Positions 5,318-24,146 of a stretch of DNA of 64,000 nt are shown piece after piece (the stretch's first letter is position 1; each line of letters starts with the position of its first letter). A program made the translations under genes and the position numbers. The notes under the pieces were generated by a model, which searched no databases, was not told the origin of the DNA, and saw only the letters and a program-made list of their open reading frames with translations. The stretch is taken from the NCBI GenBank assembly GCA_963724765.1, contig CAVRVY010000003.1:192001-256000 (forward strand), written 5' to 3'. The stretch comes from an uncultured delta proteobacterium (GTDB lineage Bacteria; Desulfobacterota; Binatia; Binatales; Binataceae).

Positions 5318-5328
5318 GAAAGAGCAAC

Positions 5329-5502: not shown

Positions 5503-5535
5503 AGGCGTACTACCTTTCACCAGGAGCAGAAGCGA

Positions 5536-5613: not shown

Positions 5614-6711
5614 TGTGCCTCCCAAAAACCTTATCCCGGATGACGCGCGGGTAAGCGTATGGTAATGAAGCGGCCGATGGTGGCGTTTCTGAGCCAGCTG
5701 CTGCTTGCTATCCGGTCGCGGTTCACGGGGCGCGCGCGGCTTGAGGCCGAGAATCTCCTCCTGCGCCAACAACTGGTAGTTCTGCGGCGCAAGTTCCCGA
5801 CGCGCGTGAGACTGTGGAACATCGATCGCTTGCTGTTGGTATGGCTGTATCGACTGTACCCGTCGCTCCTGGACGCGATCACCATCGTCCAGCCGGAGAC
5901 CGTGATCCGCTGGCACCGACGCGGTTTCCGCGCCTATTGGCGCTGGAAGTCCCGCCACGTCGGCGGCCGTCCAAGGATCGATTGCGAGATGCGAGCGCTG
6001 ATCCGGCGGGGATGAGCCGCGAGAACCCGCTGTGGGGCGCACCGCGGATCCACGGCGAATTGTTGATGCTTGGAATCGAGGTCGCTGAATCAACCGTCGG
6101 CAGGTATATGGTCTGGCGCCGCCGACCACCGTCCCAAGGTTGGAAGACTTTCCTGCGCAATCACGTTGGCGGCATCGCTTCGCTGGATCTGTTCGTCGTA
6201 CCCACGTCTCGTTCAAGCTGCTGTACGGCTTGGTGATCCTGCGTCACGCCCGCAGGCGACTAGTCGCGATCAGCGTCACTACCAATCCGACTGCCGAGTG
6301 GATCGCTGGACAGGTGACTGACGCTTTCCCCTGGGACGAAGCGCCGCGTCACCTGATTCGCGACCGCGACGGGGGCCTTCGGCCCAGCCTACACCCATCG
6401 CATTCGGGCAATGGGGATCCGCGATCATCCGACCGCGCCGCGTTCACCGTGGCAGAACGGCCACGTCGAGCGCCTCATCGGCTCGATCCGGCGCGAAAGC
6501 CTCGATCACTTGGTCGTGTTCGACGAAGCGCAGTTGCGTCGCGTTCTGAAGAATTACGTTTCTTATTACAATCGGGTCCGAACGCATCTCTCATTGGACA
6601 AGAATGCGCCGGATTTTCGACGCCCACAGAAGCTCGGCCCCATCGCAGCCATCTCAATTCTGGGTGGGCTGCACCACCAATATGTAAGGGTTTAGGTTTT
6701 GACTAAGCACA
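5614..6711 (+). mobile_element. IS481-like (integrase-core/rve) element, transposase frameshifted
   Basis: Ends TGTGCCTCCCAAAAACC and GGTTTTGACTAAGCACA; fragments ENPLWGAPRIHGEL, IRDRD, SPWQNGHVERLIGSIRRE, GGLHHQY. Confidence 0.88.
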
Positions 6712-7740
6712 ACCGTCCGGGAAAGGGCTGTATGGTGGCTACTCCTACTGATTTTTGTTGGCTGGAGGATTTTCGCACAAAGTAACGCTGCCGATGATCG
6801 AAACTTTTCGTTCATTGACGTATGAATTCGAGCCAAAGCGCTCCGATGTTATCTTCGAATGCATATTCTATTGGGATGTTTTTTTCGACGATGTTTGTCG
6901 CGGGTCTCGCTGGATTAGTTCACAGCTAAATCCTGTGCCGTGCCTAGTCAAAACCTAGACCCGGACGTATTGATGATGAATTCCGCCGGGACTGGTATCG
7001 CTGCTCTTTATCCAAGATAAGTCCGGACTTCATTGTAATACGAGGCGCACACCTTTAGAACGTCGTGCAAGTGCGCCTAGCCGAACACGATTAGGTAGTC
7101 GAGAGATTCGCGACAGATCGATCCGGTGAGCCGCCGGTCAGCGTGGCCATTCGGAGCAGAAAGACCATTGAGTTGCAAACACGAAGGCAACGGTTCTTGA
7201 TGGCGATTGCCGTATTCCACATTCGTGCAGTGGGGATCCGAGATCACCCTCTCGCCCCACGCTCACGGAGTCAGATTCAGGATTTAAAAAGGTGCCCGGC
7301 GGTTCAAGGAGACCGCTAGATGACCGTCGCCGGGCCACTCATGCGATACGAAGTCCGCCGCATCACGCTTGGGCGTCGCCCTGTTTGCGACCGCGCGCGA
7401 TTCGAGACAGGTCGCGTTGGTCCAAAGTCGCACCGATTTTCATCACCGCGGTCCACGATCAGGCTGACACCTCGAACTCATCCGCGCCTTTGCGAGCCGT
7501 CCGGACCACCCTTTGCGTCTCCGTGCGCCCGGATTATTAATAGATTTTTGAGAAGCGACAGGCGGCGAAGGCTCTTTGGACGCCACGCAGGACGCCGTAA
7601 ACTGAACCCTGGCCGCGCCCTTGAAAAGACGCACAACTTGGCCTAAACCGTCAAGCAACCGTGAGGCAAAACGGAAATTCCGGCCACAACCCGTTAGCAG
7701 GCATTGTCCTTAAGAACATACTTTCATTTTGGGGGCATGA

Positions 7741-8265
7741 ATGAACTGGGCAACAGGAAAGAGATTTTTTCTGATTCGGCTGCTGGTTTTGCCCCTCCTG
7801 ATTAACGCGATGCTGACGTCTTGTGCACCGACCCACGACAATATCGCGGACCAAATGTTGGTAGACACTCAAAAGCAGGCGGATGATGGCTTGCTAAAGC
7901 TTGAAAATCTCGGAGACGAAATCGATCGCCTCAAGAAGAGTGGTAACGCAGCCGACCAGAAAGTAGTAGCTGACGCCGAGGCTCAGGCCAGCTATGCATC
8001 CAATATAGACTTCTACAGCAAACTTCAGTCGTCGATGACAGTGCTTGACGCGCGAATGACTTCTAGCCCAGATCTTTCCACGCAGAAGATCACTACCTCA
8101 CTTGGAGACCTGGAAAAGAACATCGATTCCGCGCGTCAGGTTCATGCAAGCCAAAATACGTTGGGACCGGATTTCGCAAAGCAAATGAGGCAAACGTTGG
8201 ACCAACAGTTCAAGGTGCTGACGGTCTATGAGCTGACGATTAAAAATGGCAGTAAGCCGCAGTGA
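7741..8265 (+). CDS. predicted lipoprotein, helical, unknown function
   Basis: Basic N-terminus, hydrophobic stretch, lipobox LTSC; GTGA overlap with the next ORF. Confidence 0.7.
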   Translation: MNWATGKRFFLIRLLVLPLLINAMLTSCAPTHDNIADQMLVDTQKQADDGLLKLENLGDEIDRLKKSGNAADQKVVADAEAQASYASNIDFYSKLQSSMTVLDARMTSSPDLSTQKITTSLGDLEKNIDSARQVHASQNTLGPDFAKQMRQTLDQQFKVLTVYELTIKNGSKPQ

Positions 8266-8282
8266 CCTTGGCTGAGGGGGCG

Positions 8283-8618
8283 ATGAACATGGCCATCGAT
8301 TGGACGCAAGTGGGCAAGGACGTTGAAGCGGCGGTCATTAATGTTCTAAAAGGCTCTTGGAGTACTGTCTCGACTGCCGCCGGCCCTCAAATTCAGGCAA
8401 TGATCAGTATCGGGCAGAGTATCGAGCAAAGTAATAATCAAGGTCGGCTGACTCCTTTAGAGTACAGCACGCTGCGCTCGGCGCAGAAGAACGCGCTAGA
8501 AGGAATACTGTGCGGTTATGAGGCCATTGGTATAGTTGTTGCGGAACAGGCAGCGGACGCGGCCTGGAACGTTATTTCTCAAACGCTGATAAAAGGGGCA
8601 GGCATCGCATTTGCTTAA
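8283..8618 (+). CDS. hypothetical amphipathic helical protein
   Basis: GAGGGG RBS, directly follows the lipoprotein; Ala-rich amphipathic helices, hydrophobic C-terminus. Confidence 0.7.
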   Translation: MNMAIDWTQVGKDVEAAVINVLKGSWSTVSTAAGPQIQAMISIGQSIEQSNNQGRLTPLEYSTLRSAQKNALEGILCGYEAIGIVVAEQAADAAWNVISQTLIKGAGIAFA

Positions 8619-8639
8619 TACCTGACCCGAAAAACGTCG

Positions 8640-8810
8640 ACCTGTTCTCGGACGGTCTCTTAGGCGGTCGTTGAGCTGCGTGGTAGAGATGTCAGCGTGG
8701 CCCAACCATTCCTGACCTTCGCCATGTCAGGCTCATGCGAGAGGGTATTGATCGCTGCGGTGGCGCGGAGCGAATGCACGCAAAGACCGTTCGCTTCGGC
8801 GCTGATACCG
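8640..8810 (-). pseudogene. tyrosine recombinase C-terminal fragment
   Basis: VHSLRATAA (HxxR) and, in another frame, GHADISTT. Confidence 0.75.
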
Positions 8811-8960
8811 CCTTCCGGAGGATACAGATTGCGGCGAAGCTTTTGACCTGAGCGTCTGAGTGATGAGATGTGACGATGTGTTAAGAAACCGAGCAGAGTC
8901 GGATCAGCTATTTGTGTATAATCAGGCAACAGCGGTCAACGACTCAATAGGAGACCTCGA

Positions 8961-9902
8961 GTGGCCAACTTTCGAATACTTTCTTTCGACGGTGGTGGAA
9001 TCCGGGGAGTGCTGACCGCGGTTCTGCTCAATCGAGTATTAACCGAGTATCCGACGTTGTTGCAAGATCGACCCAACACGATCACGATGTTCGCCGGCAC
9101 CTCGACCGGCGGGATCTTGGCTCTCGGTATGGCTGCTGGGCTCAGCCCTACGCAGATCCGCGATCTCTATGTTACGAGCGGAAAGTTGATCTTTGATTCC
9201 TCGTGGGCGCGCGATGTGGTCGAGCTAGGCGGAGTCAGCGGATCGAAGTACGACAACGTGCAGCTCAAGCAAATTTTGCAACAGACTTTCGGCGCTCTGA
9301 GACTCAGGGACTTAACGCCACGCGTGCTGATCGCATCGTTCAGCTTAGACAATCAGGCGCTTGATCCGTCCGACCGTACTTGGAACCCTAAATTCTTCCA
9401 CAACTTTCCTGGCGCGGACAGCGACGGCGAATCTCTGGTGGTTGACGTCGCCATGTCCACCAGCGCCGCGCCTACGTACTTCCCTTCGTATGGCGTGTAC
9501 GTCGATGGCGGTGTGATCGCCAACAATCCGAGCATGGCGGCCGTTGCGCAGGCGCTGGATGGGCGTAATCAAGCAAACGAACGCGCCACGCTGGACGAGA
9601 TCAAGCTACTGTCGCTTGGTACGGGCACCTCGCTGCAATACATCCAGGGACAGGATCTCGATTGGGGCGACGCGCAGTGGATCAAGCCAATTCTTAACGT
9701 GATGATGGACGGCAGTGTAGGCGTAGCCGATTTCCAATGCGAGCAACTGCTTGGCAATCGTTATCGCCGTCTTGAACCCATATTTCCGGCCGGAAGGTCG
9801 TTCCCTATGGACGATGTCAGCAAGATCGTAGACTTGATGGACTTCGCACAGTCATTTGACCTGACCAGCACCATCGCGTGGCTGCAAGCCGCAGCATGGT
9901 GA
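8961..9902 (+). CDS. patatin-like phospholipase
   Basis: DGGGIRG, GTSTG nucleophile, SAAPTYF, DGG; GGAG RBS and GTG start. Confidence 0.92.
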   Translation: MANFRILSFDGGGIRGVLTAVLLNRVLTEYPTLLQDRPNTITMFAGTSTGGILALGMAAGLSPTQIRDLYVTSGKLIFDSSWARDVVELGGVSGSKYDNVQLKQILQQTFGALRLRDLTPRVLIASFSLDNQALDPSDRTWNPKFFHNFPGADSDGESLVVDVAMSTSAAPTYFPSYGVYVDGGVIANNPSMAAVAQALDGRNQANERATLDEIKLLSLGTGTSLQYIQGQDLDWGDAQWIKPILNVMMDGSVGVADFQCEQLLGNRYRRLEPIFPAGRSFPMDDVSKIVDLMDFAQSFDLTSTIAWLQAAAW

Positions 9903-9967
9903 CACGTTCACAGCGGGTTCTCGCAGCTAATCCGCCGGATCAGCGCTCGAATCTCGGAATCAATCCT

Positions 9968-11492
9968 TGAGACTGACCCAAAACCCGAGAAGTATGCCGG
10001 CCATAAGTTGAGAGAACGGCTGGAGGTGTGGTCCTCTGCAAGCAGCCTGAGGAGGGCAGCGGGATGCCGAAGAAGGGCCACGGCGAGGAGCAGATCCTGC
10101 GCGCCTTGCGTCAGGCGGAGAGCGGCACGCGGGTGAGCGAGATCTGCCGCGAGTATGGGATCAGCGACGCGACGCTTTACGTCTGGAAGAAGAAGTACGC
10201 CGGGCTGGGGCTGAGCGAGCTGCGCGAACTGCGGCAGCTGCGCGAGGAGAACGGCAAGCTCAAGCGGCTGGTCGCCGACCTGTCGTTCGATCGTCACATT
10301 CTCCAGGAGATCGTGCAAAAAAAGCTGTAAGGCCCCGTCAGCGGCGCGAGCTCGGGCTGTGGACCCAAGCGGTCTTTGCCCTGAGCGGACGCCGGGCGGC
10401 GGGGCTGATGAACATCACGCGCAAGACCTTGGTGTACCGGAGCCGGCGACCACCGCAGGACGCTCTGCGCATGCGACTGCGTGAGCTGGCGGCGAGCCGG
10501 GTGCGCTTTGGCTATCGGACGGTTGACCGTGATCCTCAGGAGAGAGGGCTGGCGGGTGAACCCAAGCGCATCTACCGACTCTACACCGAGGATGGGCTCA
10601 CGGTGCGGACCAAGCTGCGCAAGAGGCTGGCGCGGCGAGCGCGGGTGGCGACGCCCAAAGCGACGCGGCCGAATGCCAAGTGAAGCATGGACTTCATGAG
10701 CGCAAAACTCCTTGATGGGCGCTGGTTTCGTGTGCTGACGGTAATTGATCAGTTCACGCGGGAATGCCTGACGCTGGTCGCCGACCGCGCGCTCAACGGC
10801 CACCGCGTGGCGCTCGCGCTTTCGCAGGTGGTCGCCGAGCGAGGAACGCCCGAATCGATCACCGCCGATAACGGCAGCGAATTCGCCAGCAAGGCGATGG
10901 ACGGGTGGAGCTACCAGTACGGGGTTCGCCTGGAGTTCATCCGTCCGGGAAAGCCGATTGACAATGGCTACATCGAATCGTTTAACGGTCGGCTTCGCGA
11001 TGCTTGAACGTCGAAACCTTTTTCGATCTGAGTGACGTCCGGGAGAAGCTCGAGCACTGGCGACTGGACTACAACCAGGCGCGACCTCACAGCGCGTTGG
11101 GCGATCGTTCTCCCGAGGAGTTCGTGCGCGAGTGGAAAGAATCGAGCGCGGGCTCTCTGCGCACGGCTGGGCCGGCTAGCGAAACGCCGGCCGGCGCCGT
11201 GCACGACAGCAAGTCCGCCGAAGCAAAACGTTTACCGCTTTTCGTCCCGCCCTCGGATGTGAAGGGCGGGGCCGAAAAGCGGTCCGGGGACACGGCAGAG
11301 CCGGGAGCCGAAAAGGGCCAGTTGTTAGAGGTTGTCAATTGAGTATGTTGAGTGCGTTAAACGCCGGAAATACCGGTACCAATCGACCACACCAGGCCGA
11401 AATCTTTACCGTCGGTCGGCATACTTGCACGGGGCGAGTCATTCCGGGCAGACACTAACCTATCGGTGGGATACTTCGTTGGGGTAAGGTCA
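9968..11492 (+). mobile_element. IS3-family element (orfA 10064-10330 intact, orfB disrupted), inserted in an IS481-like remnant
   Basis: TG...CA ends with imperfect IR, A7G slippery site at 10317-10324, orfB motifs DNGSEF and GKPIDNGYIESFNG, internal TGA at 10681. The flanks rejoin as an IS481-like transposase sequence. Confidence 0.88.
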
Positions 11493-11692
11493 AGACGGCC
11501 GCCGACTCGGCGGGACTTCCAGCGCCAGTAGGCGCGGAAACCGCGTGGGTGCCAGCGGATCACGGGCTGGGCGGGGCCGGCGCGAAAGGCCAGAGTGGAG
11601 GTTCGAATTTCAGCGTCACACTCTAAAGAGCGCTCAGCGCAGGTATTTTGGGGAGCGGGCTCGCAGTGCGTACCAAGGGGAGTCACATCACG

Positions 11693-12622
11693 CTAAAGAC
11701 CCAAGGCGGCGCGCGTTGCCGGGCCCACGATGCCGTCGGCGGTGAGCGCGTATTTTTGCTGAAAATCGGTGACCGCGGCCACCGTCGCCATACCGAAAAC
11801 TCCATCGATGACCAGCGCATAGCCCTTCGCCTTGAGGGCATTTTGCACACTCTCGACGTCGCTGCCCTGCAATAAAGGATCGCGCAGCGACAGCAGTCGT
11901 TCGTCGACGATCTGTGCAGAGGCTCTTACCGTGTCGCCCGCAAGAGCCGACGAGTCGATAGTGACGCTGCGAACTACGATGGGGAGATCGAGATTCCACT
12001 GATTGGCCACGATGAGTTTTCCAAGTTCGACCATTCGGTAGACCGTTTTTTGCAAAAGCGGATTCGCATTCGTAGCCAGCCATTGCTGGCGAACCGAGAT
12101 ATACTGACTGACCCAAGCGTTCTCGCCCAACTTCTGACAGGAGCCACACTGAGCATTGGTGCGATCCCGCATCAGGACCCAACTGCCGTGAACGAAACTG
12201 TCGTATATCACGCAGCATCCGAGAGCGGACGTTATTCCAAGGCCAGTCGCGGACGTCAGCGCGGGGGTCCAATAGACCCGGTTGAAGAATGCGTCCTGAA
12301 CCTGATGCATGACCAGGTCCGAACCCGCCTGATGAAGCAGGTCTTTGAAACCGTGGTCGTTATCGAGCGAGGGATCCTTCAGTTGCAGTCTGCCCATGAA
12401 TGGCTGGAATGAATCGGCGTATTGAGCCCCGGCAGCCGCGACATAAGCCTTTATCAGGAGAAACAGATTGCCGCTCGCCAGCGTCGTCTGCGATCTGCCG
12501 TAGGTCAGATGGCCCGAATCACCCGCCAGCAATGTCACGTTGCCATAGTTGCCGAGCACCCGCCCTGTCTCAAAGATGTTGACGATGGCTTCGGCGGTAG
12601 CCTTTTGGATATCGGTCGGCAT
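11693..12622 (-). CDS. lysozyme-superfamily (chitosanase/GH46-like) glycoside hydrolase with C-terminal peptidoglycan-binding domain
   Basis: IVNIFETG, GDSGHLTYGRSQTT, IYDSFVHG; tail GSDVESVQNAL...DGVFG...FQQKYALTADGIVGPAT (PG_binding_1). Confidence 0.85.
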   Translation of the reverse strand: MPTDIQKATAEAIVNIFETGRVLGNYGNVTLLAGDSGHLTYGRSQTTLASGNLFLLIKAYVAAAGAQYADSFQPFMGRLQLKDPSLDNDHGFKDLLHQAGSDLVMHQVQDAFFNRVYWTPALTSATGLGITSALGCCVIYDSFVHGSWVLMRDRTNAQCGSCQKLGENAWVSQYISVRQQWLATNANPLLQKTVYRMVELGKLIVANQWNLDLPIVVRSVTIDSSALAGDTVRASAQIVDERLLSLRDPLLQGSDVESVQNALKAKGYALVIDGVFGMATVAAVTDFQQKYALTADGIVGPATRAALGL

Positions 12623-12678
12623 TGGCGTTCACTCCTGAGCGACGCGCAATCGGCTTAAGAAACTTGCGTCGTACAACG

Positions 12679-14562
12679 TCATTTGGTGATGATTACGACC
12701 GGCCACGCCGCCATCTGTCCATCGGGATTGGTCACCGAGAGTTCCGGCTTTTTGGTCGGCTCCGGAGGAGGTGCGACAGCGCCTGCTCCGGCGGCGCCAG
12801 CGCCTCCGGCAAGCGGAGCGGTTGGTCTCGGCGCCTGCATCGCGACGATCTTGTCGATCAAGTCTTTGTCTCGCACCGTCAGCCGTAGTTCGGATGCCAA
12901 GTTGTCGTCAGTGGCCTTGTCGTCGCGGGTTACCATTTCGACCACATTTTTGGTTGCTCCAGCCGCGGAGGCTTTCACGTAAGGCACCTTCAATTCGCCG
13001 AATCTGATACCGCAATCGGTGGCCAGACTCTGGCCGATGATGCTGACGGTCAGCCTGTCGTTGCGCCCTGCCGCAGGCGGTGGAACGATATCCGGTTCCC
13101 ACGATGCCATGGTCGCCATGATGATTGGCCCGGGTTTACGCACCATCTTGCCGCCCAGGTATCCAGCCGAACTTGCGCCCATCAGTAAAAGGAATCCTTG
13201 CGGAACCGCCGGCAGGTTATGGAGCGAGCTCGGATCTGCTAGAAAGGTCAGCGATAGAAACGATACAACGCCTACGATCGTCCATACGACAAACTGGACT
13301 CGCTCTGGCACCACAACGCCACCGACCGTCAGCAGGTCGGCCCAGCCGGGTTGGACTTTTCCGGCGCCTTTCGATCCCACTGCGGACGCTATGCCGGTCG
13401 CGACCACGGAAGTTCCGACGCTCAATCCCAGGATGCCAGGCAGATTTCCGGGAACGTCAGAAAACTCGAATGTTCCCTGGATCAGGCTGCGCACCAGGGT
13501 GAGGTACGAATATCCAAGGACTACTCCAAACGTCCATAAATAGAATTGAAACTTGGAGAGGCTATAAGTGTCGGTTTCTGCATCCAGCATGAGGGCGGTC
13601 ATCAACTTGTATGACTTTCCGGCGATTTTTTTCTGCGCGGGGCGGCTTAGGATCAGACTCAAGATCGCAATAATCACGGCCACAAAGATCAACGCCCACC
13701 ATCGCGGGGTTGCGCTGTTAACGCGTGAAATCGTCACTGTCCTGAGGGCCGAGGATTGTGTTCCGATGTTGACCGCGAGGCTGTCGATGCCGCCATAGGT
13801 TGCGATGGGAATGCCGGTTAGACGAATTTCGCGGCCATTTTGATCGACCGTTCCGACTATGTCGCACGCCGCGCATGGCTTCGGGTCGCCGCAATTCCAG
13901 CAAACTTTCAACTCGTTGTTGTTAACCAAGATGCGATTATCCTTGCCGGCGAGACTGAAATTATCGCCGCTTAAGATCAGGTTTGCGCTCTGGGCGGGCT
14001 GAGAAGGGCCGTTGGTGGAAGATTCCAGGCATCCATTGGTGTTGTTGGCCGGGTAGGCCACCTCGGGCGTGACACCGAGCAAAGCAGGCCCCTCGCTGGT
14101 CTCGCGCACAACCCTGAGAGGCACGAAGGGGGACGTGCCGAGACCGGAGGTCGAAACCGGCACTGCTTTATATAGGCGGATTTCATAGGTCCCAATCGGG
14201 AGATCGAATGGAACTATCGCGCCGCAGGAACCGTCGCCTGCTTTTGCCCGGACACACGGCACCAGCTTTTGCGTCGAATTGTCGCATCCATTTTCGTTTG
14301 GTTTACTATGCGGCACACAGGCTTCCATGAACACAGCAACGGTTTGGTCCAGGAGGTCGTTCGGGCTAACTGCATTGAGTTGGACGGTCGCTCCGCGCGC
14401 CGCCTGCCCGGGCCCGGCTGAAGTCAGAGGTATAAGGTGATCCGAACCTGAATCGTCGGCGAGCGCAGTCGACGTTACTGAAAGGGCGGGCGAACCGGCG
14501 AGTGCCAATATGACGGCGGCTATGATCGCCCGCGCAGGTACCCATCGAAGTTCCCAATCCAT
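12679..14562 (-). CDS. secreted/membrane protein with Cys-containing Ig/IPT-like domains and a duplicated multi-TM unit
   Basis: Signal peptide; repeated motif (SKFQFYLWT...PGILGLSVGT / ERVQFVVWT...LLLMGASSAG); GGAGG RBS. Confidence 0.7.
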   Translation of the reverse strand: MDWELRWVPARAIIAAVILALAGSPALSVTSTALADDSGSDHLIPLTSAGPGQAARGATVQLNAVSPNDLLDQTVAVFMEACVPHSKPNENGCDNSTQKLVPCVRAKAGDGSCGAIVPFDLPIGTYEIRLYKAVPVSTSGLGTSPFVPLRVVRETSEGPALLGVTPEVAYPANNTNGCLESSTNGPSQPAQSANLILSGDNFSLAGKDNRILVNNNELKVCWNCGDPKPCAACDIVGTVDQNGREIRLTGIPIATYGGIDSLAVNIGTQSSALRTVTISRVNSATPRWWALIFVAVIIAILSLILSRPAQKKIAGKSYKLMTALMLDAETDTYSLSKFQFYLWTFGVVLGYSYLTLVRSLIQGTFEFSDVPGNLPGILGLSVGTSVVATGIASAVGSKGAGKVQPGWADLLTVGGVVVPERVQFVVWTIVGVVSFLSLTFLADPSSLHNLPAVPQGFLLLMGASSAGYLGGKMVRKPGPIIMATMASWEPDIVPPPAAGRNDRLTVSIIGQSLATDCGIRFGELKVPYVKASAAGATKNVVEMVTRDDKATDDNLASELRLTVRDKDLIDKIVAMQAPRPTAPLAGGAGAAGAGAVAPPPEPTKKPELSVTNPDGQMAAWPVVIITK

Positions 14563-14868
14563 CGCTGCCTCCCTGTCAAGGTGCGGCCTGGCTCACTATC
14601 GAGGGCGGTGCAATGAGCGACCCTGCTTCCGCCTTCGAGGAGATGGAAATCCTTAGAAGCTCACAAGACCCATTTCGTTTCGCATCGTCTTGGGGGAACT
14701 ATTGTCCGCTTTTACAGAGTGGGCCATCGAATGTCTAGCGAACGTAAACCGATAGTGAACACAATTCCACACACGTTTAGCATCATACGACGGCGAACTG
14801 GTTGTGTTAGGCGTCTCTTAGGGCTAGTAAGCAGAGAGATTTGCAGACTAGACAGGGGGGTCGAACAG

Positions 14869-15846
14869 ATGAACGCGGATGTCGCACATATATATCAGTA
14901 TGCAACCACCATCATCACCAAGGCGTCGCTGTTCCTGAATGTCATGAGGCCGTCAATGGGTGGCCAGGATGATCCCAGCCAGAATCTGAGGCTCACGACC
15001 TCGACGCAGGAAACGGTCAGTGCGGAACTCATAAGGCAGCTAAAAGACAGCAACATCGTGTCACCGTCCGCGATTGGGCTGATATTTGCGACCGCGTTGC
15101 CAATCGTGCTGGACGGCGCAAACCAGGGCGGACAGGGTTCGCTGCTCGGGTTCGTCGGCACTTCGGCGGCACTTCCGTTCAAACTGATCAGAGATGTGGT
15201 TACGGGAAAAGACCCGCTGGGTGAGATTCAGAGTTTGCCCGGGGAACTGCGCGGGGCATTGTCTCAGATGGCCCCCTCGCTTTTCCATCTGTCGTTTCTG
15301 CTGGTGAACCAGGTAGAGGTCGCACTGTCAGTCCTGCCTACGTTGCAAATGTTCAAGCAGTCCGAAGCTGCAATGGCGAATGTCGAAAAGGCTCTGGGCG
15401 ATTATTTCTTCACTGACGGTTTCGCCACGATCGATGGCGATAGGATCTCGCGTCCCCAGTTTACGGACGTCGCAACCGGAGACCTGCGGACGCTCAAATC
15501 GCTGGTATCACAGAAATCGGGAGCTGACTTCGTTCGCAACGCCGTGCGGATACCTATAGAAGCGGGCGCCGACGTCGAATACGACCTGCAAAAAAGACTG
15601 GCCCACGCGATGACCAAGGTTTTTGGCGCAGCTCCGACAGCCACTCAGCACGAGAAGCTGAGGTCGTGGATGAAGGGGTTCGCTTCGAACGCGGAATCTA
15701 CCACTACCGCGGCAGTCGAAGCCCTTGTGTTGGGCGCGGGAGCGGCCCAGTCTAACTCGCTGATTGGAGCAGCTAGTGGTACCGCCGCCGGCACGATCGC
15801 CAGAAAGGCGACGCAACATGTATTTCTCAGGGAACTCGGAGTCTAG
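14869..15846 (+). CDS. hypothetical protein with hydrophobic hairpin and C-terminal Gly/Ala zipper
   Basis: Long ORF with a G-rich RBS before ATG 14869; LGAGAAQSNSLIGAASGTAAG; 63 nt before the second patatin. Confidence 0.65.
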   Translation: MNADVAHIYQYATTIITKASLFLNVMRPSMGGQDDPSQNLRLTTSTQETVSAELIRQLKDSNIVSPSAIGLIFATALPIVLDGANQGGQGSLLGFVGTSAALPFKLIRDVVTGKDPLGEIQSLPGELRGALSQMAPSLFHLSFLLVNQVEVALSVLPTLQMFKQSEAAMANVEKALGDYFFTDGFATIDGDRISRPQFTDVATGDLRTLKSLVSQKSGADFVRNAVRIPIEAGADVEYDLQKRLAHAMTKVFGAAPTATQHEKLRSWMKGFASNAESTTTAAVEALVLGAGAAQSNSLIGAASGTAAGTIARKATQHVFLRELGV

Positions 15847-15909
15847 ACGAGCCTCTTTCCTTCGACCGTAACTGCCACAGACTCAAGTGGTTCATGCGAG
15901 GGGGACGCG

Positions 15910-17628
15910 ATGACGGACGAACGACGACTTGCGATTTGCATCAAGGGCGGCGTATCACTGGGTGCGTACGAGGCGGGCGTTTTGGCGAAGACGCTTGAAC
16001 TCATTGCGAACAACAACTTTATAGCCGACAACATCCCGCAGGCGCACGCGATTCCCTGGTACATCGACACGTTGGCGGGCGCGAGCGCGGGATCGATGAC
16101 ATCCGTAGCCACCGCCTGCATCCTGCTAAATAGCAGCAGCAATTATCTCGCTGAGATGTGGGTTCACAAGGCCGCGCTCTCGACCCTGGCCCCCGATTCC
16201 TCCATTGGTACAGATTTGGGTTACCAGAAAGGCGATGACATGCTGGCGGCGTCTTCGCTCGATGCGCTGGCGATAGATTTTGACGCACCACCGCCGTTGG
16301 TAACGAAACGTCATCCGGCGCTGCGCCCGGGCTACGCGATTATCCGAACGATTTTCTCGCTCTCGAACATCAACGGCGTTCCCAATCCCGTCGATACGCT
16401 CAATGGTAGCTCGCTGGTGTTTCGTGAGTACGCCGATGCGGCCCGATTCGACATTACCGTCGATGATGCCGGCAGGTTGTACGTAAGCGGCTCCGACACA
16501 CGGGCTGCCGCCTCTATTCAAGCGAATGACGACAGCGGTACTGCGTGGTATGCCATGATTCAATCGGCAATTGCTTCGGGGTCTTTCCCATTGGCTTTTT
16601 CCCCGCGTGGATTGTGGCGGTGGCATGCGGATCGTCACGAGTATTCTGCCGAGTACTACTCGGACGGTGGGCTATTCGATAACGATCCTGTCGGCAAGCT
16701 TATCAATCTGGCACACGAGACGGATTGGGCTCCCGGAAACGCCGTCTATCAGGACAATCAGCGACGATTCATGGTGGTGCACACCGCTCCCACTGATTTG
16801 TCCGACCCATCTATCAAAGCTCCTTGTCCAACGCTGGAGCTTAATCCAATCGACTTGGCCAGAAAGCTGATTCCCGCGTTCGTCAACGAATCGATGGAGA
16901 GCGGTTTGCGAGGGATCACCACAGTCAATCTCCAGTTCGCGCAGCGAATGTCGGTCCTCAATCGTCTGGCCAAGTTCGCCGCCACGTCTTCTGTCGCCCC
17001 TGGCGGGCCTTCTCCACTTATGGCCGCGATCTCCGCATTGGCGACACTGCGCGGATTCAGTGACGATCAGATCAATCAATTACGCGGATTCCTGATTCCG
17101 GATCTGAAGGACACCGATCCAATTCTCCACGACTATGTGATTAAGCTTCCTGCTGGGGCCCAGAGGGTATTCGAGGATTTTGCCATTTTCTTCGACCTTT
17201 CCTTTGACCTGGCAGACAAGGTTCCGATCAAGCCTATCCTGATCGCCCCCTCACCGGGCGAGTCTCTTTCAGGAGATCCACTCTTCGCCTTCGCAGGATT
17301 TTTTTCTCAGACCCTGCGAGAATGCGACTTTGCAAGAGGCCAGTACGACGCGTTCAAGGCTTGGGAGGCGATAAGCAAAGGACCCGAGAAGGACTTTACA
17401 ATCGAGGGCGTCGAGGCTCCTTCTCCGGTCGGCGATCGCCAACCGGACACAGATGCGCCCTCATCATCGAGCGAATACACCAAAGGCCTTGAAGTATTCC
17501 GGAAGCGGCTGAAACTCGTCATCGATAGGGCTGTGGATGAGCTGAAATCCGAATCGGGGCTTGCCGCTAAGGTTGGGTTGGATCTCCTTCAGATACTTGC
17601 CAACCTCGGTGTGGGCACAATCGGTTGA
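15910..17628 (+). CDS. large patatin-like phospholipase
   Basis: KGGVSLGAY, GASAG, ASGSFP, YSDGG. Confidence 0.88.
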   Translation: MTDERRLAICIKGGVSLGAYEAGVLAKTLELIANNNFIADNIPQAHAIPWYIDTLAGASAGSMTSVATACILLNSSSNYLAEMWVHKAALSTLAPDSSIGTDLGYQKGDDMLAASSLDALAIDFDAPPPLVTKRHPALRPGYAIIRTIFSLSNINGVPNPVDTLNGSSLVFREYADAARFDITVDDAGRLYVSGSDTRAAASIQANDDSGTAWYAMIQSAIASGSFPLAFSPRGLWRWHADRHEYSAEYYSDGGLFDNDPVGKLINLAHETDWAPGNAVYQDNQRRFMVVHTAPTDLSDPSIKAPCPTLELNPIDLARKLIPAFVNESMESGLRGITTVNLQFAQRMSVLNRLAKFAATSSVAPGGPSPLMAAISALATLRGFSDDQINQLRGFLIPDLKDTDPILHDYVIKLPAGAQRVFEDFAIFFDLSFDLADKVPIKPILIAPSPGESLSGDPLFAFAGFFSQTLRECDFARGQYDAFKAWEAISKGPEKDFTIEGVEAPSPVGDRQPDTDAPSSSSEYTKGLEVFRKRLKLVIDRAVDELKSESGLAAKVGLDLLQILANLGVGTIG

Positions 17629-17867
17629 GAAAACCACAGCCCTGTTTTGTTGGTGACGCGCGCCGTCACCTCACGCTGGCAACGCCAGCGTACCCGGTTC
17701 GAGATGCCTTGGGGCACTGAGTAGTCGGGATCAGGCCGCTTCGATTGATGAGAGTTGCGCGCAGCTCTTGGCCACGAGCACTTTGCAGTACCGCGCCCAA
17801 TTCATCGCCGATCGCCCGCGGCGGTTTCGCCCGCCGGGTCCGGAACGAAATAGCACAACATCTGGGT

Positions 17868-18062
17868 ATGCCGTGGTAGAACGGCCACGTCGAGCGGCTC
17901 ATCGGCTCGATCTCGAGCGAATATCTTGATCACCCTCGTCCAGGCATATCTCCTTTTGGACAAGAATGCATAGGATTTTCGGCGCCCGCCGAAGCTTGGC
18001 CCATCAATTTTGCGCGCGCTTTACCATCAATACGTCGGGGTTTAGTGCTTGACTTAAGCACA
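17868..18062 (+). mobile_element. IS481-like 3' remnant
   Basis: PW*NGHVERLIGSI; terminus ...GACTTAAGCACA. Confidence 0.7.
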
Positions 18063-18558
18063 GGCAATAGAGCGAACAGCAGACATAGAGGTGAACCAAC
18101 CACCTGGTGCACACTCATACAATTAAATATGAGTTGCCTTTGTTCGGTCTGCTTCATTGCCCTTTCCTGGTGCTGCTCGGTGTTGGTCTTTTTAACTGTC
18201 TGTGGCTCGGCGGATTGCTCCCGGTTAGACTTCTTTCTCGCTGGCCAGATCCGATTGGCGGCCAGATCCGATTGGCGTTCCTCCGATCGACCTCGCTTTT
18301 CAAGCTCCTCTTTCTTGGCGATCTCAGTAGTTACCTGCCTTAAGCCGCGATTCCCTTAATGCGAGTTGCATTTTTTCTACGAGATCTGGTTGAAACACCT
18401 ATAACCGGGACTCGCCCCGCTCGTCCAAAAAAACCGCTTGTCTGGCATCCTCGAGTAGCTTTGCGGTGCTGTGATCGCATGACGCCATACGGGCTCGCCG
18501 CAACTTAGATATCAACCCGAATCCTTTCGCGGACCGCGCTGCTTGGCGGAGGTTTGAA

Positions 18559-18654
18559 AGGCCCCTTGTGCTGGAGGAATTTGATACGACGGTTGTGGTC
18601 CCCCCCGGGTTGGCCGCCTCGCTCGACCGACTCGGCAATATAATTATTCGCACC
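18559..18654 (+). pseudogene. hydantoinase/oxoprolinase C-terminal fragment
   Basis: PLVLEEFDTTVVVPPG...LDRLGNIII. Confidence 0.6.
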
Positions 18655-18853
18655 CGTACTCAGGAAAGCTTAGTAGTCGTCATCCAACGATATAGATAGA
18701 CGTGGTTCTTTGATATGGGTGGTTGGCTAGGCGACCGAAAATCTGAGGAATGTGCGCAGTTGTGTTTCGTGAGTTCGGCCGTCCAGGAGTGCTTAAGAGC
18801 TCTGTTCCACCATGACCGCGTCTCCTGCGTTGTGAGTTCAAATTTAAGACACC

Positions 18854-20088
18854 TCACGCTTTACTCGCTATCTCTTCTGGGGACCCAACTGTCAACAACT
18901 TGACCAATTTATCCATAGCTGCAAATACGATCTCGACGCTGTAACCAGCCAAGAAAGCTAGAGCGACTGAGGATATGGACTTCGATTGTAAAAACCAAAC
19001 AACGGCCACTCCAGTTAAAGCGCCGATAATGACTCTCAGGTGGTAGCCATAGCTGGTCGATGCCGTATAAGTTTTCTGCTGAATCTCTAAATTTAGGCTG
19101 CGTAAGATGTACACTAGGGTACCAAGCAGCCCATAAAGAAATGGAAGTACAAATTGTTGAAGTGCCTGTAGCGCAAATGAAGCCTGGACTTTCATTTTCG
19201 CTATGACAACTGTCCTGCGGCCGTCAAACCAACCAGCCGGACCTCTTCTGGACCGCCCTCGCTTTTCGCACCTGGAACCGTCTCTGTTCGGAACAGGAGC
19301 TTTTCATCCTGTTCCTGTTCCTCAACTGACATTCGCCAGGGTGTTATCAGGTATCGCCAAACATGTGTCCAGCCCCGCAACGTGACATAATACCCCGCAA
19401 GAATGGCCACGTGGTCATAGAATCTCTGTCTCAGTTGAAACATCTCGCTCGGCGTCGGAGTGGGTGCAACTAGAGACTCACTTGACCCAGTCTGCTCGTT
19501 TGGGGACTCAGTCGCCTTGCTTACGTCTGGCTGGCTCTTAAAAGGTGCTTCAGCTGCCATTCTCGCTGTATTATCGTTCGAGCCCGTTAAATTTTCACCA
19601 GTTTTAAACCCATATAACTGAGCTACATAGCTTGCCAATTGGTACTGTGTCTGGTCGATGGACTGAGTTATGTCATGACCGATTAGCCAATAGATTTGTG
19701 CCGCCACAAGCAAGAGGAATGTGATGGCTGTAAGTGTCGTGTATCTTCTAATAGCGCGGCGCGCTAGGGATGCACCAAACCACCTATCTGGTATCTCTGT
19801 TATTGCTTTCAGGCTCTCGACCGTTACAGGCTTTGCTAGGCTGCAAAGTTTCGCATAGATGACCCAAAAAGCAGCTTCCTCAGTTGGGTCCAAGTCTGTG
19901 CCAGCGGTTATCTTTTCCTCAATGCCGATGAGAGAAGAGACTTCTGTCTGGTCAACGTTAAGACCCACCTTCACCGCGTGGGTCAACAACAACATGGCGT
20001 CATCAATTTCAGTTTGCGCGCTAGGATGGTGTTGAGCTGTGGATGGTGGAAGCTTTTTATGAGCTTCTTGGGCAGCGTCGTGTTTCAT
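18854..20088 (-). pseudogene. multi-TM hypothetical protein split by a frameshift (19201-20088 and 18854-19195)
   Basis: The two ORFs are 5 nt apart in different frames. The C-terminal part has LPFLYGLLG...RVIIGALTG...LAFLAGYSVE TM motifs and stays open upstream of its ATG. Confidence 0.6.
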
Positions 20089-20744
20089 TTCGTTTTACCT
20101 ATGCCCACGAGCCTGATTCGGTGCTTGGATTCTTAACCGGAATTTCCTTTTTAAATCCTGATTCAGACTCACACCAAGACTGTTTGGTTTGCAAACGCAA
20201 AGATCAAGCCGGGTTTTGAGCGCGAAGGGCCTTCCACCGCGCCGCAACAGACCGGTTTTGCCTCGTGTTGACATAAGATCCCGAAACCGCCGCTTCTCCG
20301 ACCGAATTCTCAGACACTTCCGCCTGCGCCCCAGCATCGTCACCGAAATTTGCTCCGCCCTGTGCTCGCCTTATCCCGCCGGCGACGGCAGCGCCGCGAT
20401 CTTCCGCAGCATGCCGGCAAACAGCCGCCGGGTCAGATGTCCCTCGGCCAACAGCAACCAGTAGTAGCGCGCATGTTGGATGAGCCGTCCGCCGGTCTTC
20501 ACCAACCGCTGCTGCAAGCTGGTCAGCGACCACTTCCCGATCGGCGCGGGCAGCGCCAGCCGCCGCCACAAATTCCCCAGGTTATAGGCGATGACGCTCA
20601 GCCACAGTCGCACCTCGTTGGCGCGGAAGCGCTGGCAGGAAAGCCGCGTCATCTTCACTGCTTGCTTGCCTTCCTTGATCCATTGCTCCGCAGTGCCGCG
20701 TTTGTTGTAGAAGCGCACCACCGTCCGGCTTGAAGTCCCAAGAT

Positions 20745-22171
20745 TGATGGGATGGACTGCTCCCCACTTGGACGCCAGCCCAGTGGGCCACGATGGTACG
20801 TTTGACTATCAGCAACCAATGCGAGGAGGGTCAGCGATGAAAGTTACAACGTTAGGAATTGATCTAGCAAAGAACGTGTTCCGGGTGCATGGCTGCGATG
20901 CGAGCGGCAAGGTGGTAGTGAGCAAATCGCTTACGCGGCGACAGCTTCAGGTATTGGTTGCCAACCTACCGCCCTGCTTGGTCGGGATGGAGGCGTGTGC
21001 TACGGCGCGCTACTGGGCGCGAGAAATTCAAAAGCACGGCCACGAGGTGCGGTTGATGGCGCCCCAGTTCGTGCGTCCCTATGTAAAGGCCAACAAGAAC
21101 GACACCCGCGATGCCGAGGCTATCTGCGAAGCGGTGCGGCGGCCGACCATGCGTTTCGTCGCGGTGAAAAGCCCGGCGCAGCAGGACGTGCAGGCGCTGC
21201 ATCGGGTTCGTCAACAGCTGGTCAAGGAGTTGACGGCACTGAGCAATCAAGTGCGCGGCCTGCTCGCCGAGTATGGGTTGGCAATTCCGTTGGGTTTCGC
21301 GGCGCTGCGGCGCGCGCTGCCTAGGATTGTCGCAGAGGACGACAACGGGCTCAGCGGTTTGATGCGCGAATTGGTACTCGACCTCAGAGAACGGTTCGAC
21401 CACACGGAGCAGCGGCTGCGCCGCTACAACCAGCAGATCATTCAACTGCTCCACCATGATGAGCGCTGCCAGCGCCTGGCTGAAGTGCCGGGGGTAGGTC
21501 CGCTGACCGCCACAGCAGTGGTCGCGGCCGTTGGTAATGCCCGGGACTTCAGAAGTGGGCGCGAGCTGGCTGCCTACCTTGGGTTGGTTCCACGCCACCG
21601 CGCCAGCGGTGGGCCGTACTGTTATGCTCGGCATCAGCAAGCGGGGTGATAGCTATCTGCGAACCCTTTTGGTCAATGGCGCACGTGCCGCAATGCGTAA
21701 CGTCGGGCGCCGCCGGGATCCGCGCAGCGTCTGGGCCAGTCGTCTCAAACTACGTCGGGGGGCCAATGTTGCAACGGTGGCGCTGGCCAACAAGAACGCT
21801 CGCGTGATGTGGGCATTATTGACTCGAGGTGAGAACTACCGCGCCGTACCCCACCCCGCGCGGATTCCGCAACGCGGCTGACGCGCGGAGAAAATCAGAA
21901 CCAGGAAGTTAACCTACCAAGAGTTGCGCAAGCTGTGAACGAAACGGTGATGGCGAACCGGTCGGACCGGCACTTTCTCAAACCTAGCCGTGACCAAGGC
22001 CTTCGAGGCCGCAAAATTGATAAGGCGAAAGTGCGCGGATTTCCATCAGGGCCCGGGGCAATAGCAACAAAGTGCAGCCCCACTCCAGAGAGGCCGAATA
22101 TATGGTTGCAACCGGATCATCGCTCAATCGAATCGCATCCACAGCTTCGCACCGGGGGAGCGGTCCATATA
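20745..22171 (+). mobile_element. IS110 family, IS1111 group element (transposase 20837-21881, one frameshift near 21612)
   Basis: GIDLAK, MEAC, KND.RDA, SGG motifs; subterminal IRs ATGGACTGCTCCCC / GGGGAGCGGTCCAT, 7 and 3 nt from the ends; long 3' non-coding region. Confidence 0.93.
21900..22150 (+). ncRNA. bridge/seek RNA of the IS1111 element (boundaries approximate)
   Basis: Stem GCACTTTC/GAAAGTGC encloses CGTGACCAA and CAAAATTG (target guides); CCATCA and ATATATG match the circle junction. Confidence 0.8.
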
Positions 22172-23270
22172 TGGTCACGATGAACCCCACGCGGGGGAAC
22201 AATTCCCCGCAATGGAATTCGACCTTCGCCACCACCCGCCGGGTCATCGTCCAACTCGCCGCCTGGTAAAGAAAACTCTTGTACCGCACCACCGGCTTGT
22301 AGCTTGGCCGTCCCGCTGGCCGGGTCAACAACTCCGTAATGTTCCGCTGCAGATGGTCGTTGGCAGGAATACGAATGGCATACTTCACCGTCCGTTCTTC
22401 CAGCGCCTCGTAGAGCTCCGGCTTGGCAAAGGCGGCGTCGCCACGGAAGGTCACCTCTTTGCCCTGCGCCTGCTGCCGATCGATCTCGGGTAGCAGCAGT
22501 TCCTCCCAACCCTCGGCGCTGTGGACGTTGCCGGGGCGCAGCTTCGCCGCTAGGCAGTCGCCTTCGCGATTGAACAGCAGCAAGGGATGATAACAGGTGG
22601 ACTCGAAGTGGCCGTTGTACGCACTGTGCTCCTGCCGACCATGGACCGGGATTTCCGTGCTGTCCATATCAAGCACTACCCGCCGCGGTGAAGCGATGGC
22701 CTCTGCCTTGGCGAGCAACTCCCGGTTGAGCGCGGCCAGCCCGGCAAGGTTTTCTCCTTGCGTCAGCACTTGGGTCTCGAATGATTGCAAGCGCGAGGTC
22801 AAGGCCGCGCCCCGCTCCCAGATCTTCCGCGAGCCGATGAGCCGGAAGGTCGGATCCTGGGACAGCCGCTCGGCGTCGTTGACATCCTCATACCCCGCCA
22901 AGCGGCTATAGATCGACTGCCGCAGCAGGTCCGCCAAAGGCAATTGGATATTCTTGCCGCGGCGGAAATCGCTCAAGTGCCGGTCCACGAGTGCGCTCAA
23001 GCCGAGATGTTCGTCCAGCTCGCGCACCAGAACTAATCCACCATCCGAGGTCACCCGTGAACCTTGGAAGTCCACCCTCAAGGAGCCGTTGAACGAGAGC
23101 TGAAAGGGCCGTCGTTGCGTCTCACCCACTGCCTCGCCACCTCCACACCACCCCGATCGCATCCAAACCCACGTCCATCAGCGCGTTTGTCGCATTTTAT
23201 CAAATTGCTAGCTCACTGAGAAAATGGGAATGTGGGTTAAAAAAAGAGGAACCCTCCTGGCCGCGTTCCT

Positions 23271-24146
23271 CTATTTGCATCCAATCGTACACGTAGACGG
23301 GGGAGGGTGAGACACCATAACGATTTCTGGCGCTAGTATAAAATTCAAAGTACCGTCCGCCCCTACGCTGATATCATACAGAATATACCAAGCTTTTTGG
23401 CTCGGTGGACAATCCGTGTAGTATCTCTGAATATCAAGTTGCTGAATGCCTGCGCTGATTCGAAGTCTCCCACCGCATCCTCCATAAGGGCCATTGTCCA
23501 CATCGAAGTAGACCGCGGCCGTACTGCCAGGCACCAGCTTGTAGGTTACATCGACCCATCCTGAATCCTCACCAAACTTTAAGGCGGGAAATAGAGCCAC
23601 GCCGTTTAATTTTACATTGGCATAGTCGTCGATATCGGACGCTCGCACCAGGAGTCTTACTCGTCTTCCTAGTAGACCTTTTGCAATTTCGGATTCCGGT
23701 AGCGCTTCGGAACTCGCGATTGCCTCTAGTTGAGGTCGCCCCGAAACTTTCATGCGCTCAAGAACACGGAGTGCTGATTGTCCTACGACGTTAGGACCGT
23801 AATTGTTAGGATAGGCAAAGCGGAGCGCAATTGGTACCGCATAACTAGGCTCCAGCGCAATATCCAGATCATCGATCAGGTTGGCTCGATCATGTTCAGT
23901 AGTTGTTGAAATGATTTTGTTGAGATACGCGGCACTCAGTTGACGTTCGGACACGCTAAGTTGCGCCTTAGCAACGCTGTCGGCGGCCGCCATCTGAGCT
24001 TTCGTTATTTTCCGCTGGGCGCGATTGATCAGCACAGTGACTAGAACTCCTAACGCCGCGATGAGCACGCCGGAGGTCAGTTGTCCGATAACACCGAGCT
24101 TATCCCAAGTATCCTTGGGCTCTCTATTCTTGGCGGAAATGTACAT
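23271..24146 (-). CDS. hypothetical protein with N-terminal TM, coiled coil and beta-rich C-terminal domain
   Basis: 291-aa ORF; WDKLGVIGQLTSGVLIAALGVLVTVLI TM segment. Confidence 0.65.
   Translation of the reverse strand: MYISAKNREPKDTWDKLGVIGQLTSGVLIAALGVLVTVLINRAQRKITKAQMAAADSVAKAQLSVSERQLSAAYLNKIISTTTEHDRANLIDDLDIALEPSYAVPIALRFAYPNNYGPNVVGQSALRVLERMKVSGRPQLEAIASSEALPESEIAKGLLGRRVRLLVRASDIDDYANVKLNGVALFPALKFGEDSGWVDVTYKLVPGSTAAVYFDVDNGPYGGCGGRLRISAGIQQLDIQRYYTDCPPSQKAWYILYDISVGADGTLNFILAPEIVMVSHPPPSTCTIGCK

Follow-up and report, generated by a model that had tools for sequence, protein, structure and literature searches.

A membrane protein with a predicted duplicated core and an exchangeable signal-less wall hydrolase form a two-gene unit found in a Binataceae island and in several other phyla

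Introduction

When genes for envelope-active proteins lie together among remnants of insertion sequences (IS), do they form one system, or is only part of the group a unit that recurs elsewhere? We asked this question of positions 7,741 to 24,146 of a 64,000-nucleotide stretch of DNA, referred to here as the window (G000:C3:192001-256000; G denotes a genome and L a locus), from the genome of an uncultured Binataceae bacterium (5.4 Mb, 97% complete). A first-pass annotation had grouped ten genes of this region into a single undescribed conflict, lysis or export system. Our analysis showed that the 16-kb stretch is an IS-riddled patchwork of several unrelated units with one genuine cassette inside. 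At the centre of the cassette are a 627-aa membrane protein (12679-14562), hereafter called the anchor, and a predicted wall hydrolase (11693-12622). Open reading frames (ORFs) are named by their first coordinate.

A signal-less wall hydrolase follows the anchor in several phyla

Anchor loci were collected with a profile built from 25 homologues and run against contigs of one genome per species. The best 80 of 105 matches, taken with flanks of up to 10 kb, comprised 79 loci from other genomes, and these together with the window are the 80 loci counted below. The results showed that in roughly one locus in three the anchor is followed, on its own strand, by a peptidoglycan hydrolase gene without signal peptide. 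In the window this hydrolase matched Glyco_hydro_46 (52.8 bits, cut-off 27) and PG_binding_1 (64 bits) and had no N-terminal hydrophobic stretch, which bears out the lysozyme-like, peptidoglycan-binding enzyme of the first-pass annotation. Its nearest solved relatives are chitosanases (E 4e-16), and residues E18 and D35, which we take from the chitosanase literature to be the catalytic pair, are invariant among 13 homologues. The protein is a predicted glycosidase, with peptidoglycan or chitosan as its candidate substrate.

Fifteen other loci have a GH46 gene with a PG_binding_1 (PGB) domain behind the anchor, and L004 has a fragment of one. A PG_binding_1 profile built from the anchor loci and searched across about 1.5 Mb of flanks matched 27 ORFs in 25 of the 80 loci, all of them downstream, on the anchor strand and within 5 kb. 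The PGB ORF lies at most 1.5 kb from the anchor in 21 loci and at 2.2 to 3 kb in L078-L081, behind two unannotated genes; L029, at the end of its contig, has a separate match just upstream. Loci L078-L081, from metagenome-assembled genomes (MAGs) of Pyrinomonadaceae/Blastocatellia and Acidobacteriota, represent a four- to six-gene variant in which the anchor is followed by a 126-158-aa gene, a 554-691-aa gene and then one to three PGB proteins (GH19-like), the two genes directly after the anchor having no Pfam family.

Pfam scans covered 51 downstream ORFs (at least 150 aa) and 42 upstream ORFs. Wall-hydrolase or peptidoglycan-binding domains were found in 17 of the 51 downstream ORFs: GH46, with or without PGB, in 10 loci; Amidase_2 with PGB in L016; Phage_lysozyme in L019; Amidase_2 with Peptidase_M15 and Glucosaminidase in L024; PGB with GH19 in L076; PGB with Peptidase_C1 in L042 and L060; and PGB alone in L011. 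The remaining downstream ORFs encode a Peptidase_C1 (L027), a caspase (L031), members of 13 unrelated families, and 19 proteins without a family. The upstream ORFs are mostly housekeeping genes, the exceptions being an M15 peptidase (L038), a Peptidase_C1 (L051) and an S1/P1 nuclease (L027). Judged by their predicted domains, the partner hydrolases come from at least five catalytic families.

The stop and start codons of the anchor and GH46 genes overlap as ATGA in five of the eight junctions read. Pairwise identities of the two proteins are strongly correlated across 13 pairs (Mantel r 0.85, 0/5000 permutations), indicating that anchor and GH46 are inherited as a unit; by itself this is no proof of co-evolution. 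An N-terminal hydrophobic stretch was absent from all 19 partner wall hydrolases examined, and in the partner genes the GH46 domain starts near residue 12. These findings indicate that the anchor and an exchangeable signal-less hydrolase form a genuine, undescribed two-gene unit in several phyla.

Architecture and distribution of the anchor family

The anchor has 119 homologues, none informatively named (one bears a JGI automatic name), and a few of them carry the TIG domain. By record title, the 79 loci come from Acidobacteriota, Verrucomicrobiota, Gammaproteobacteria, Planctomycetota, Myxococcota, cyanobacteria and Binataceae; L061/L238, named Lichenicola sp., was not counted as alphaproteobacterial, its genome being placed in the order of an Acidobacteriaceae MAG. 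The distribution is sporadic: the anchor was found in 1 of 60 relatives, its core in 5 of 120 family genomes, and the family in 9 of 250 genomes from the order of L064's genome. Members occur, again by title, in the cultured strains Tunturiibacter gelidiferens M8UP28, Sorangium sp. So ce1000, Altericista sp. CCNU0014 and Desulfopila sp. IMCC35006.

Searches of Pfam, NCBIfam, PADLOC and PHROGs gave no match to the anchor, and 34 core sequences compared with Pfam at E up to 5 gave nothing consistent. The family profile matched no solved chain and produced a single weak match in a viral contig collection, and the Atlas clusters for the anchor are unnamed or labelled TIG only. No description of the family was found in the literature searched, although the source-data tables of PMC12419801 could still list it; the Lipocone superfamily was considered as its home and rejected, since nothing in the passages of PMC12419801 consulted matches its architecture.

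An AF2 model of the anchor (pLDDT 84.9, pTM 0.70) has a disordered, hydrophobic N-terminus, beta domains at residues 46-278 and 480-626, and helices at 284-305, 335-362, 374-395, 419-441 and 455-474. The N-terminus is hydrophobic in 60 of 80 family members. Foldseek of the whole model returned Ig-like folds only, with no match for the core. When the two halves of the transmembrane (TM) core were aligned with hhalign, they matched at a probability of 97.2% (E 2.8e-11); the core therefore consists of TM1 and two copies of a hairpin starting K/R-x-Q-F-x-x-W-T, and xQFxxWT motifs are present in both hairpins. The model and the internal repeat agree with the Ig-like, TM-duplicated protein described in the first-pass annotation.

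Over 203 residues, the cores of 33 relatives are 36-81% identical to that of the window anchor. Eighteen positions are invariant, mostly polar or glycine, and cluster after TM1 and between helices 3 and 4. The mean K+R counts of five loop regions are 4.0, 0.26, 1.3, 0.5 and 1.7, so by the positive-inside rule the Ig-like domains are predicted to be periplasmic and the conserved loops and the TIG domain cytoplasmic, giving an inferred N-out, C-in topology. Together, the predicted five-helix duplicated core and the Ig/TIG domains appear to define an undescribed membrane protein family that belongs to no Pfam family.

Lipases beside the anchor and hydrolase

Lipases of five families, including the window patatin 15910, recur beside the anchor/hydrolase pair. 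These counts are minimums, because the census covered relatives of nine query proteins only and the Pfam scan took in 76 of the 290 candidate neighbour ORFs. Of the cassettes observed, that of L035, a Steroidobacteraceae MAG, is the richest: positions 4624-13454 encode a LytS-type kinase, a LytTR regulator, a Lipase_3, a membrane protein of the 18854-20088 family (unit D in Table 1), the anchor, GH46 with PGB, and a Tle1-like phospholipase (236 bits). Its LytS/LytTR pair presumably resembles the regulators of holin-like murein-hydrolase control. Locus L019 encodes the anchor, a phage lysozyme, an LprI lysozyme inhibitor with a signal peptide and a phospholipase D (PLD)-like lipoprotein, and L075 encodes the anchor, GH46 with PGB and a PF04185 phosphoesterase. 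Relatives of the PF04185 enzyme lie within about 5 kb in L071, L082 and L052, and L051 holds a Lipase_3-like gene. The Tle1-like, Lipase_3, phospholipase C (PLC)-like and C1 neighbours also lack an N-terminal hydrophobic stretch.

Patatins are typified by a GxSxG nucleophile motif and a DG(G/A) motif. Both 15910 and 8961 are predicted patatin-like phospholipases, as annotated earlier; they exceed the Pfam cut-off of 27.7 bits (8961 at 87.6 bits), and the motifs of 8961 are GTSTG and DGG. A patatin lies beside the anchor in the window, L004, L005 and L053, and in L205 a patatin gene directly follows a short anchor variant, as it does, on a weaker match, in L207. Within the family, 13 of 120 genomes carry a 15910-type patatin, which adjoins the anchor in four of the 13 (G017, G471, G474 and G369). 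G369 encodes a short anchor variant of 326 aa (core E 2e-23, with TIG) and, 43 bp downstream of it in the same orientation, a patatin of 34% identity. In G029, another patatin begins 24 bp after a partial ORF that matches the core weakly (E 7e-7).

The partner protein 14869 has only 13 homologues, all Binataceae-type, and its start is supported by where the homologue alignments begin. The divergent arrangement of the anchor and the partner/patatin genes recurs in G474/L199, G017/L053 and G471/L198. A promoter and terminator scan of the intergenic region gave fewer sites than shuffled sequence and was uninformative. As a separate observation, the gene downstream of the partner and patatin in G456 (L200:7760-11209) encodes 1149 aa and combines zinc-ribbon, Guanylate_cyc and AAA_16 domains, a case of a nucleotide cyclase adjoining the patatin where no anchor is present.

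Possible roles of the anchor

The reading that we favour, while giving it somewhat less than an even chance, is that the anchor may be a membrane gate that exports or releases envelope hydrolases lacking signal peptides. The anchor would be an inner-membrane protein with its Ig-like domains in the periplasm and its TIG domain, as predicted, in the cytoplasm. The hydrolase gene, second in the cassette, would be co-transcribed with it, and in the window lineage the divergent pair 14869-17628, a partner and a signal-less patatin, would join the cassette. The hydrolases would be made in the cytoplasm and would dock at the cytoplasmic face of the anchor, next to the TIG domain; the conserved core would then act as the gate, with the hydrolases passing to the wall and outer layers or the core breaking the barrier toward them. 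The outcome would be export of envelope-degrading enzymes or controlled lysis, by a logic like that of holin/endolysin pairs and type 10 secretion with an unrelated membrane component.

If the anchor is a gate, antagonism or secretion would be its leading use, though still short of an even chance; self-lysis or abortive infection would come next as a smaller but real possibility, and any other use would be improbable. The LprI periplasmic lysozyme inhibitor of L019 suggests that the enzyme reaches the periplasm of the producer or its kin, and it is possibly an immunity-like gene. We consider it doubtful that the anchor is the core of an unrecognised route by which folded, signal-less enzymes leave bacteria that have no type VI secretion system (T6SS), a route with an exchangeable enzyme slot that would serve against competitors or in programmed lysis. 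Its cargo would comprise glycosidases, amidases and peptidases of the wall as well as patatin, Tle1-like, PLD and PLC-type lipases.

Several observations weigh against a gate. About two thirds of the anchor loci show no recognisable adjoining hydrolase, so the anchor can work alone. Its surroundings consist largely of housekeeping genes rather than defence or mobile islands. Foldseek, with its Ig-like matches only, gave no structural likeness of the core to any channel, and the invariant polar residues in the cytoplasmic loops of the core would suit an enzyme or lipid-binding site as well. Short, distant variants of the anchor adjoin ABC, HlyD and M23 genes, which points towards a regulator-type or transporter-accessory role. 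Several of the 19 downstream ORFs without a Pfam family look like spurious high-GC ORFs, and the lipase census is incomplete. The link to the patatin comes mainly from related Binataceae genomes, where the units also occur apart: G456 has the partner and patatin without the anchor, and G507 the anchor without the patatin.

The best-surviving alternative, itself unlikely, is that the anchor regulates wall remodelling from the membrane or serves as its scaffold (FtsX/EnvC-like); it would position or activate hydrolases for growth, shape or division and export nothing. The housekeeping flanks and the many solo anchors fit this role, as does the short variant of L234, whose neighbours are an M23/Csd3-like peptidase and an ABC exporter (others lie beside ABC or HlyD genes), and the large periplasmic Ig-like domains could touch the wall. 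However, the partner hydrolases cannot reach the wall by the normal route because they have no signal peptide, and among the partners are enzymes foreign to remodelling: lipases, papain-like peptidases, a caspase and a nuclease. The sporadic spread of the family (about 4% of genomes) is unlike that of a housekeeping factor, and no ABC ATPase adjoins the window anchor.

Somewhat less probable again is that the core is an enzyme, or a module that binds lipid carriers, with wall precursors or membrane lipids as its targets and the hydrolases as functionally related neighbours instead of cargo. At 40-80%, identity of the core across phyla is tighter than in most holins, and the cytoplasm-side loops are rich in invariant D, T, S, K, Q and R, with S-x-x-K-like and KGxG strings. 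According to PMC12419801, membrane domains of comparable size that target the head groups of lipids are involved in wall metabolism and in conflict. Against an enzymatic core stand the failure of 34 members to match Pfam even at E up to 5 and the failure of the family profile to match any solved chain.

That the adjacency of anchor and hydrolase reflects only shared descent or chance among independent accessory genes is highly improbable. Related genomes do share synteny, the Mantel correlation is expected from co-inheritance alone, and an apparent 1106-aa anchor-GH46 fusion in L068 was rejected as a frameshift read-through, since Arg-rich out-of-frame text precedes the hydrolase and the C-terminal motif of the anchor is missing. 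Shared descent cannot explain the slot, though, because the hydrolases that occupy the same downstream, same-strand position come from at least five unrelated catalytic families; the stop/start overlaps in five loci and the placement of 27 of 27 PGB ORFs downstream within 5 kb likewise argue against chance.

Layout of the region and the remaining units

The features of the stretch are listed in Table 1. It belongs to an accessory island covering about 5 to 48 kb of the window, in which Pfam detected IS110, IS3 and DDE transposase fragments and truncated genes, and which also holds two pairs of DUF2924 and serine recombinase genes and an HNH gene. The ORFs of the first-pass annotation were all present where it had placed them, and the IS insertions that it had subtracted are represented by remnants. 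The lipoprotein 7741 was confirmed by a lipobox-like N-terminus (LTSC) and one hydrophobic segment (residues 7-30), and TM segments were found in 18854, 19201 and 23271.

Table 1. Features between positions 7,741 and 24,146 of the window
Feature	Coordinates	Strand	Description
Unit A1	7741-8265, 8283-8618	+	Lipoprotein and ~110-aa helical partner
Unit A2	8961-9902	+	CapV-like patatin (predicted)
IS3-type remnant	9908-11686		rve and rve_3 fragments in two frames (Pfam); abuts 3' end of 11693-12622
Unit B	12679-14562, then 11693-12622	-	Anchor and GH46-like hydrolase
Hydrolase	11693-12622	-	Predicted signal-less GH46-like (lysozyme-superfamily) glycosidase with C-terminal PG_binding_1; 56 bp downstream of anchor
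Anchor	12679-14562	-	627 aa; predicted signal-like N-terminus, about three Ig-like domains, TM1, two helical hairpins, C-terminal TIG-like domain
Divergent intergenic region, 306 bp	14563-14868		Between anchor operon and partner/patatin operon
Unit C	14869-15846, then 15910-17628	+	325-aa partner and 572-aa patatin
14869 partner	14869-15846	+	325 aa, lineage-restricted; directly upstream of patatin in L004/L199, L053, L200
Patatin 15910	15910-17628	+	572 aa, no signal peptide; motifs GASAG and DGG; Pfam 38.8 bits
Unit D	19201-20088 and 18854-19195	-	One membrane-protein gene, probably split by frameshift
IS110-type and DDE_Tnp_1_4 transposase remnants	20095-23162		Identified with Pfam
Unit E	23271-24146	-	291-aa orphan

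None of the ten window proteins has a paralogue elsewhere in the source genome. All but 8961, 11693 and 15910 lack a Pfam, NCBIfam or PHROGs match, the sole PADLOC match among these seven being a marginal one of 23271 to LeoB (E 0.002). We compared the ten proteins with the flanks of the 79 anchor loci by tblastn. No locus had a match to 7741, 8283, 8961, 19201 or 23271; 18854 matched in one (L035), 14869 in two, 15910 in three and 11693 in 23. The loci with 14869 or 15910 matches all hold anchors nearest in sequence to that of the window. A ten-gene system is unsupported, because most of the window proteins are missing from the anchor loci. The refuting condition set by the first-pass annotation itself, a lack of co-occurrence of the homologues in other genomes, thus goes against the ten-gene reading.

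The lipoprotein and its helical partner (7741+8283) are a separate two-gene unit, seen only in Binataceae. The former has 64 homologues (45-89% identical), the named ones from Binataceae; it occurs in 5 of 120 other family genomes and gave only two marginal matches in a 400-genome sample of the phylum. A homologue of 8283 directly follows that of 7741 in all five family genomes, and none of the five has another window gene, the patatin 8961 included, within 8 kb of the pair or flank synteny with the window.

The patatin 8961 appears, by its profile matches, to be a stand-alone CapV-like lipase of the type found in cyclic oligonucleotide-based antiphage signalling systems (CBASS), without a cyclase. 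It scored 205 and 203 bits against PADLOC models of CBASS-type phospholipase effectors (PDLC00758, 205 bits over residues 3-297) and 175 bits against NCBIfam NF041079 (CBASS_lipase), under the model cut-off of 200. No SMODS cyclase (CD-NTase) was matched in the 97%-complete source genome. The gene occurs in 17 of the 120 family genomes, with identities reaching 84%, and has no conserved partner: in eight loci, shared neighbours were confined to a single genus. G001 and G519 carry it and 7741 on separate contigs. The first-pass statement that T6SS, phage and CBASS genes were absent thus holds for the T6SS, for which neither TssC nor Hcp was found in the source genome, and fails for CBASS, whose effector models 8961 matches.

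The two ORFs of unit D had been taken for two intact TM genes; they are instead the N-terminal (19201) and C-terminal (18854) parts of one gene of a membrane-protein family of about 400 aa, in different frames and probably separated by a frameshift. The homologue in L035 is a single 439-aa protein, of which residues 77-172 resemble 19201 (E 2e-6) and residues 332-431 resemble 18854 (E 4e-16). The family profile aligned to the window at positions 17-157 and 280-384 in two different frames, the downstream one open for 36 codons 5' of its ATG. The family has 1677 representatives at E <= 0.001, mostly 360-430 aa, and no Pfam family. Its link to the cassette is weak: L035 is the sole anchor locus with a homologue, directly upstream of the anchor, and no anchor, GH46 or conserved neighbour turned up in 447 kb of metagenome sequence covering 80 of its loci, many of them short; we rejected it as a cassette part. 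Protein 23271, with one N-terminal TM segment, gave one marginal match (E 2e-5) in 120 family genomes and is an orphan outside the cassette.

A single multi-gene envelope system spanning 7741-24146 is extremely improbable and already largely refuted: its genes do lie within 16 kb of one accessory island, and L035 does join the unit D homologue with the anchor, GH46 and lipases, but 7741, 8283, 8961 and 23271 were found in none of the 79 other anchor loci, the 7741+8283 pair stands apart in all five genomes, 8961 and 7741 part company in two, the unit D family occurs in 80 loci without anchor or GH46, and in the window IS remnants separate genes that lie on both strands. What survives of the proposed conflict, lysis or export system is a plausible set of two to four genes around the anchor. 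Similarly, the claim that signal-less hydrolases sit beside a membrane protein holds in several phyla for the anchor, the wall hydrolase and the lipases, and not for the other genes. IS-rich islands can thus hold gene clusters that resemble systems though most of their members are unrelated.

Other features were observed elsewhere in the window. On the minus strand, 51953-58537 holds four tandem paralogous ORFs of 531-552 aa, 49-66% mutually identical, which share an N-terminal 'LLRYSPA...DPDLWGH'; this stretch has an unusually high AT skew (0.21-0.23) at 65-66% GC. Two DUF2924 genes, at 32349-34609 and 46515-48768, are each followed by a large serine recombinase (Resolvase and Recombinase domains), the first copy being frame-split, which suggests that relics of two integrative elements flank part of the island. 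An HNH_2 endonuclease ORF (28797-29216) and a short stretch resembling the C-terminal portion of AAA_13 (30092-30727) may be debris of a defence-type gene pair.

Discussion

Phage-type holins, type 10 secretion and injection machines are, to our knowledge, the only understood means by which wall hydrolases and lipases without signal peptides leave the cytoplasm, and we know of almost nothing on antagonism and autolysis in the soil phyla Acidobacteriota, Verrucomicrobiota and Binatota. The anchor, a widespread membrane protein encoded just ahead of an exchangeable slot for such enzymes, would give these phyla either a previously unrecognised route of export or lysis or a new kind of control over wall hydrolases. 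Its role is directly testable because the family is present in cultured strains.

Compared with CBASS that use a CapV effector, 8961 fits the phospholipase effector models over nearly its full length; it differs in having neither a SMODS cyclase in the genome nor a conserved neighbour, and its NCBIfam score is below the cut-off. FtsEX-EnvC shares with the cassette a polytopic membrane protein with a periplasmic domain that is tied genetically to wall hydrolases, and the distant short anchor variants lie near ABC and M23 genes. In contrast, the anchor has no FtsX or MacB_PCD match, the cassette has no ABC ATPase gene, and its partner enzymes lack signal peptides and include lipases.

The neighbours in the cassette also recall the effectors of T6SS (Tle, Tge/Tae), being peptidoglycan glycosidases and amidases together with Tle1-like, patatin and PLD-like phospholipases, and the periplasmic lysozyme inhibitor of L019 would be a possible immunity gene as in effector-immunity pairs. 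However, the cassette genomes examined lack the T6SS markers TssC (six genomes) and Hcp (source genome). No TssC/VipB or Hcp was found in the 97%-complete source genome and no TssC in five other cassette genomes of unstated completeness, among them that of L035; VgrG, PAAR and Hcp domains were absent from the neighbours scanned.

The closest comparison is with holin-endolysin pairs and the type 10 secretion system (T10SS), cases of which are ChiW/ChiX of Serratia, TtsA-dependent export in Salmonella and T10SS-dependent Tc toxin release in Yersinia (PMC4259817, PMC10109510, PMC10847048, PMC13284979). The anchor differs from these in its 627-aa length, its Ig-like/TIG domains with a predicted duplicated five-helix core and its lack of a Pfam or PHROGs holin match; it is essentially absent from viral contigs, no spanin was seen, and two thirds of the family members have no adjoining hydrolase. 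What the systems have in common is a gene for a membrane protein adjoining one for a muralytic enzyme without a signal peptide, with further signal-less degradative enzymes nearby as possible cargo.

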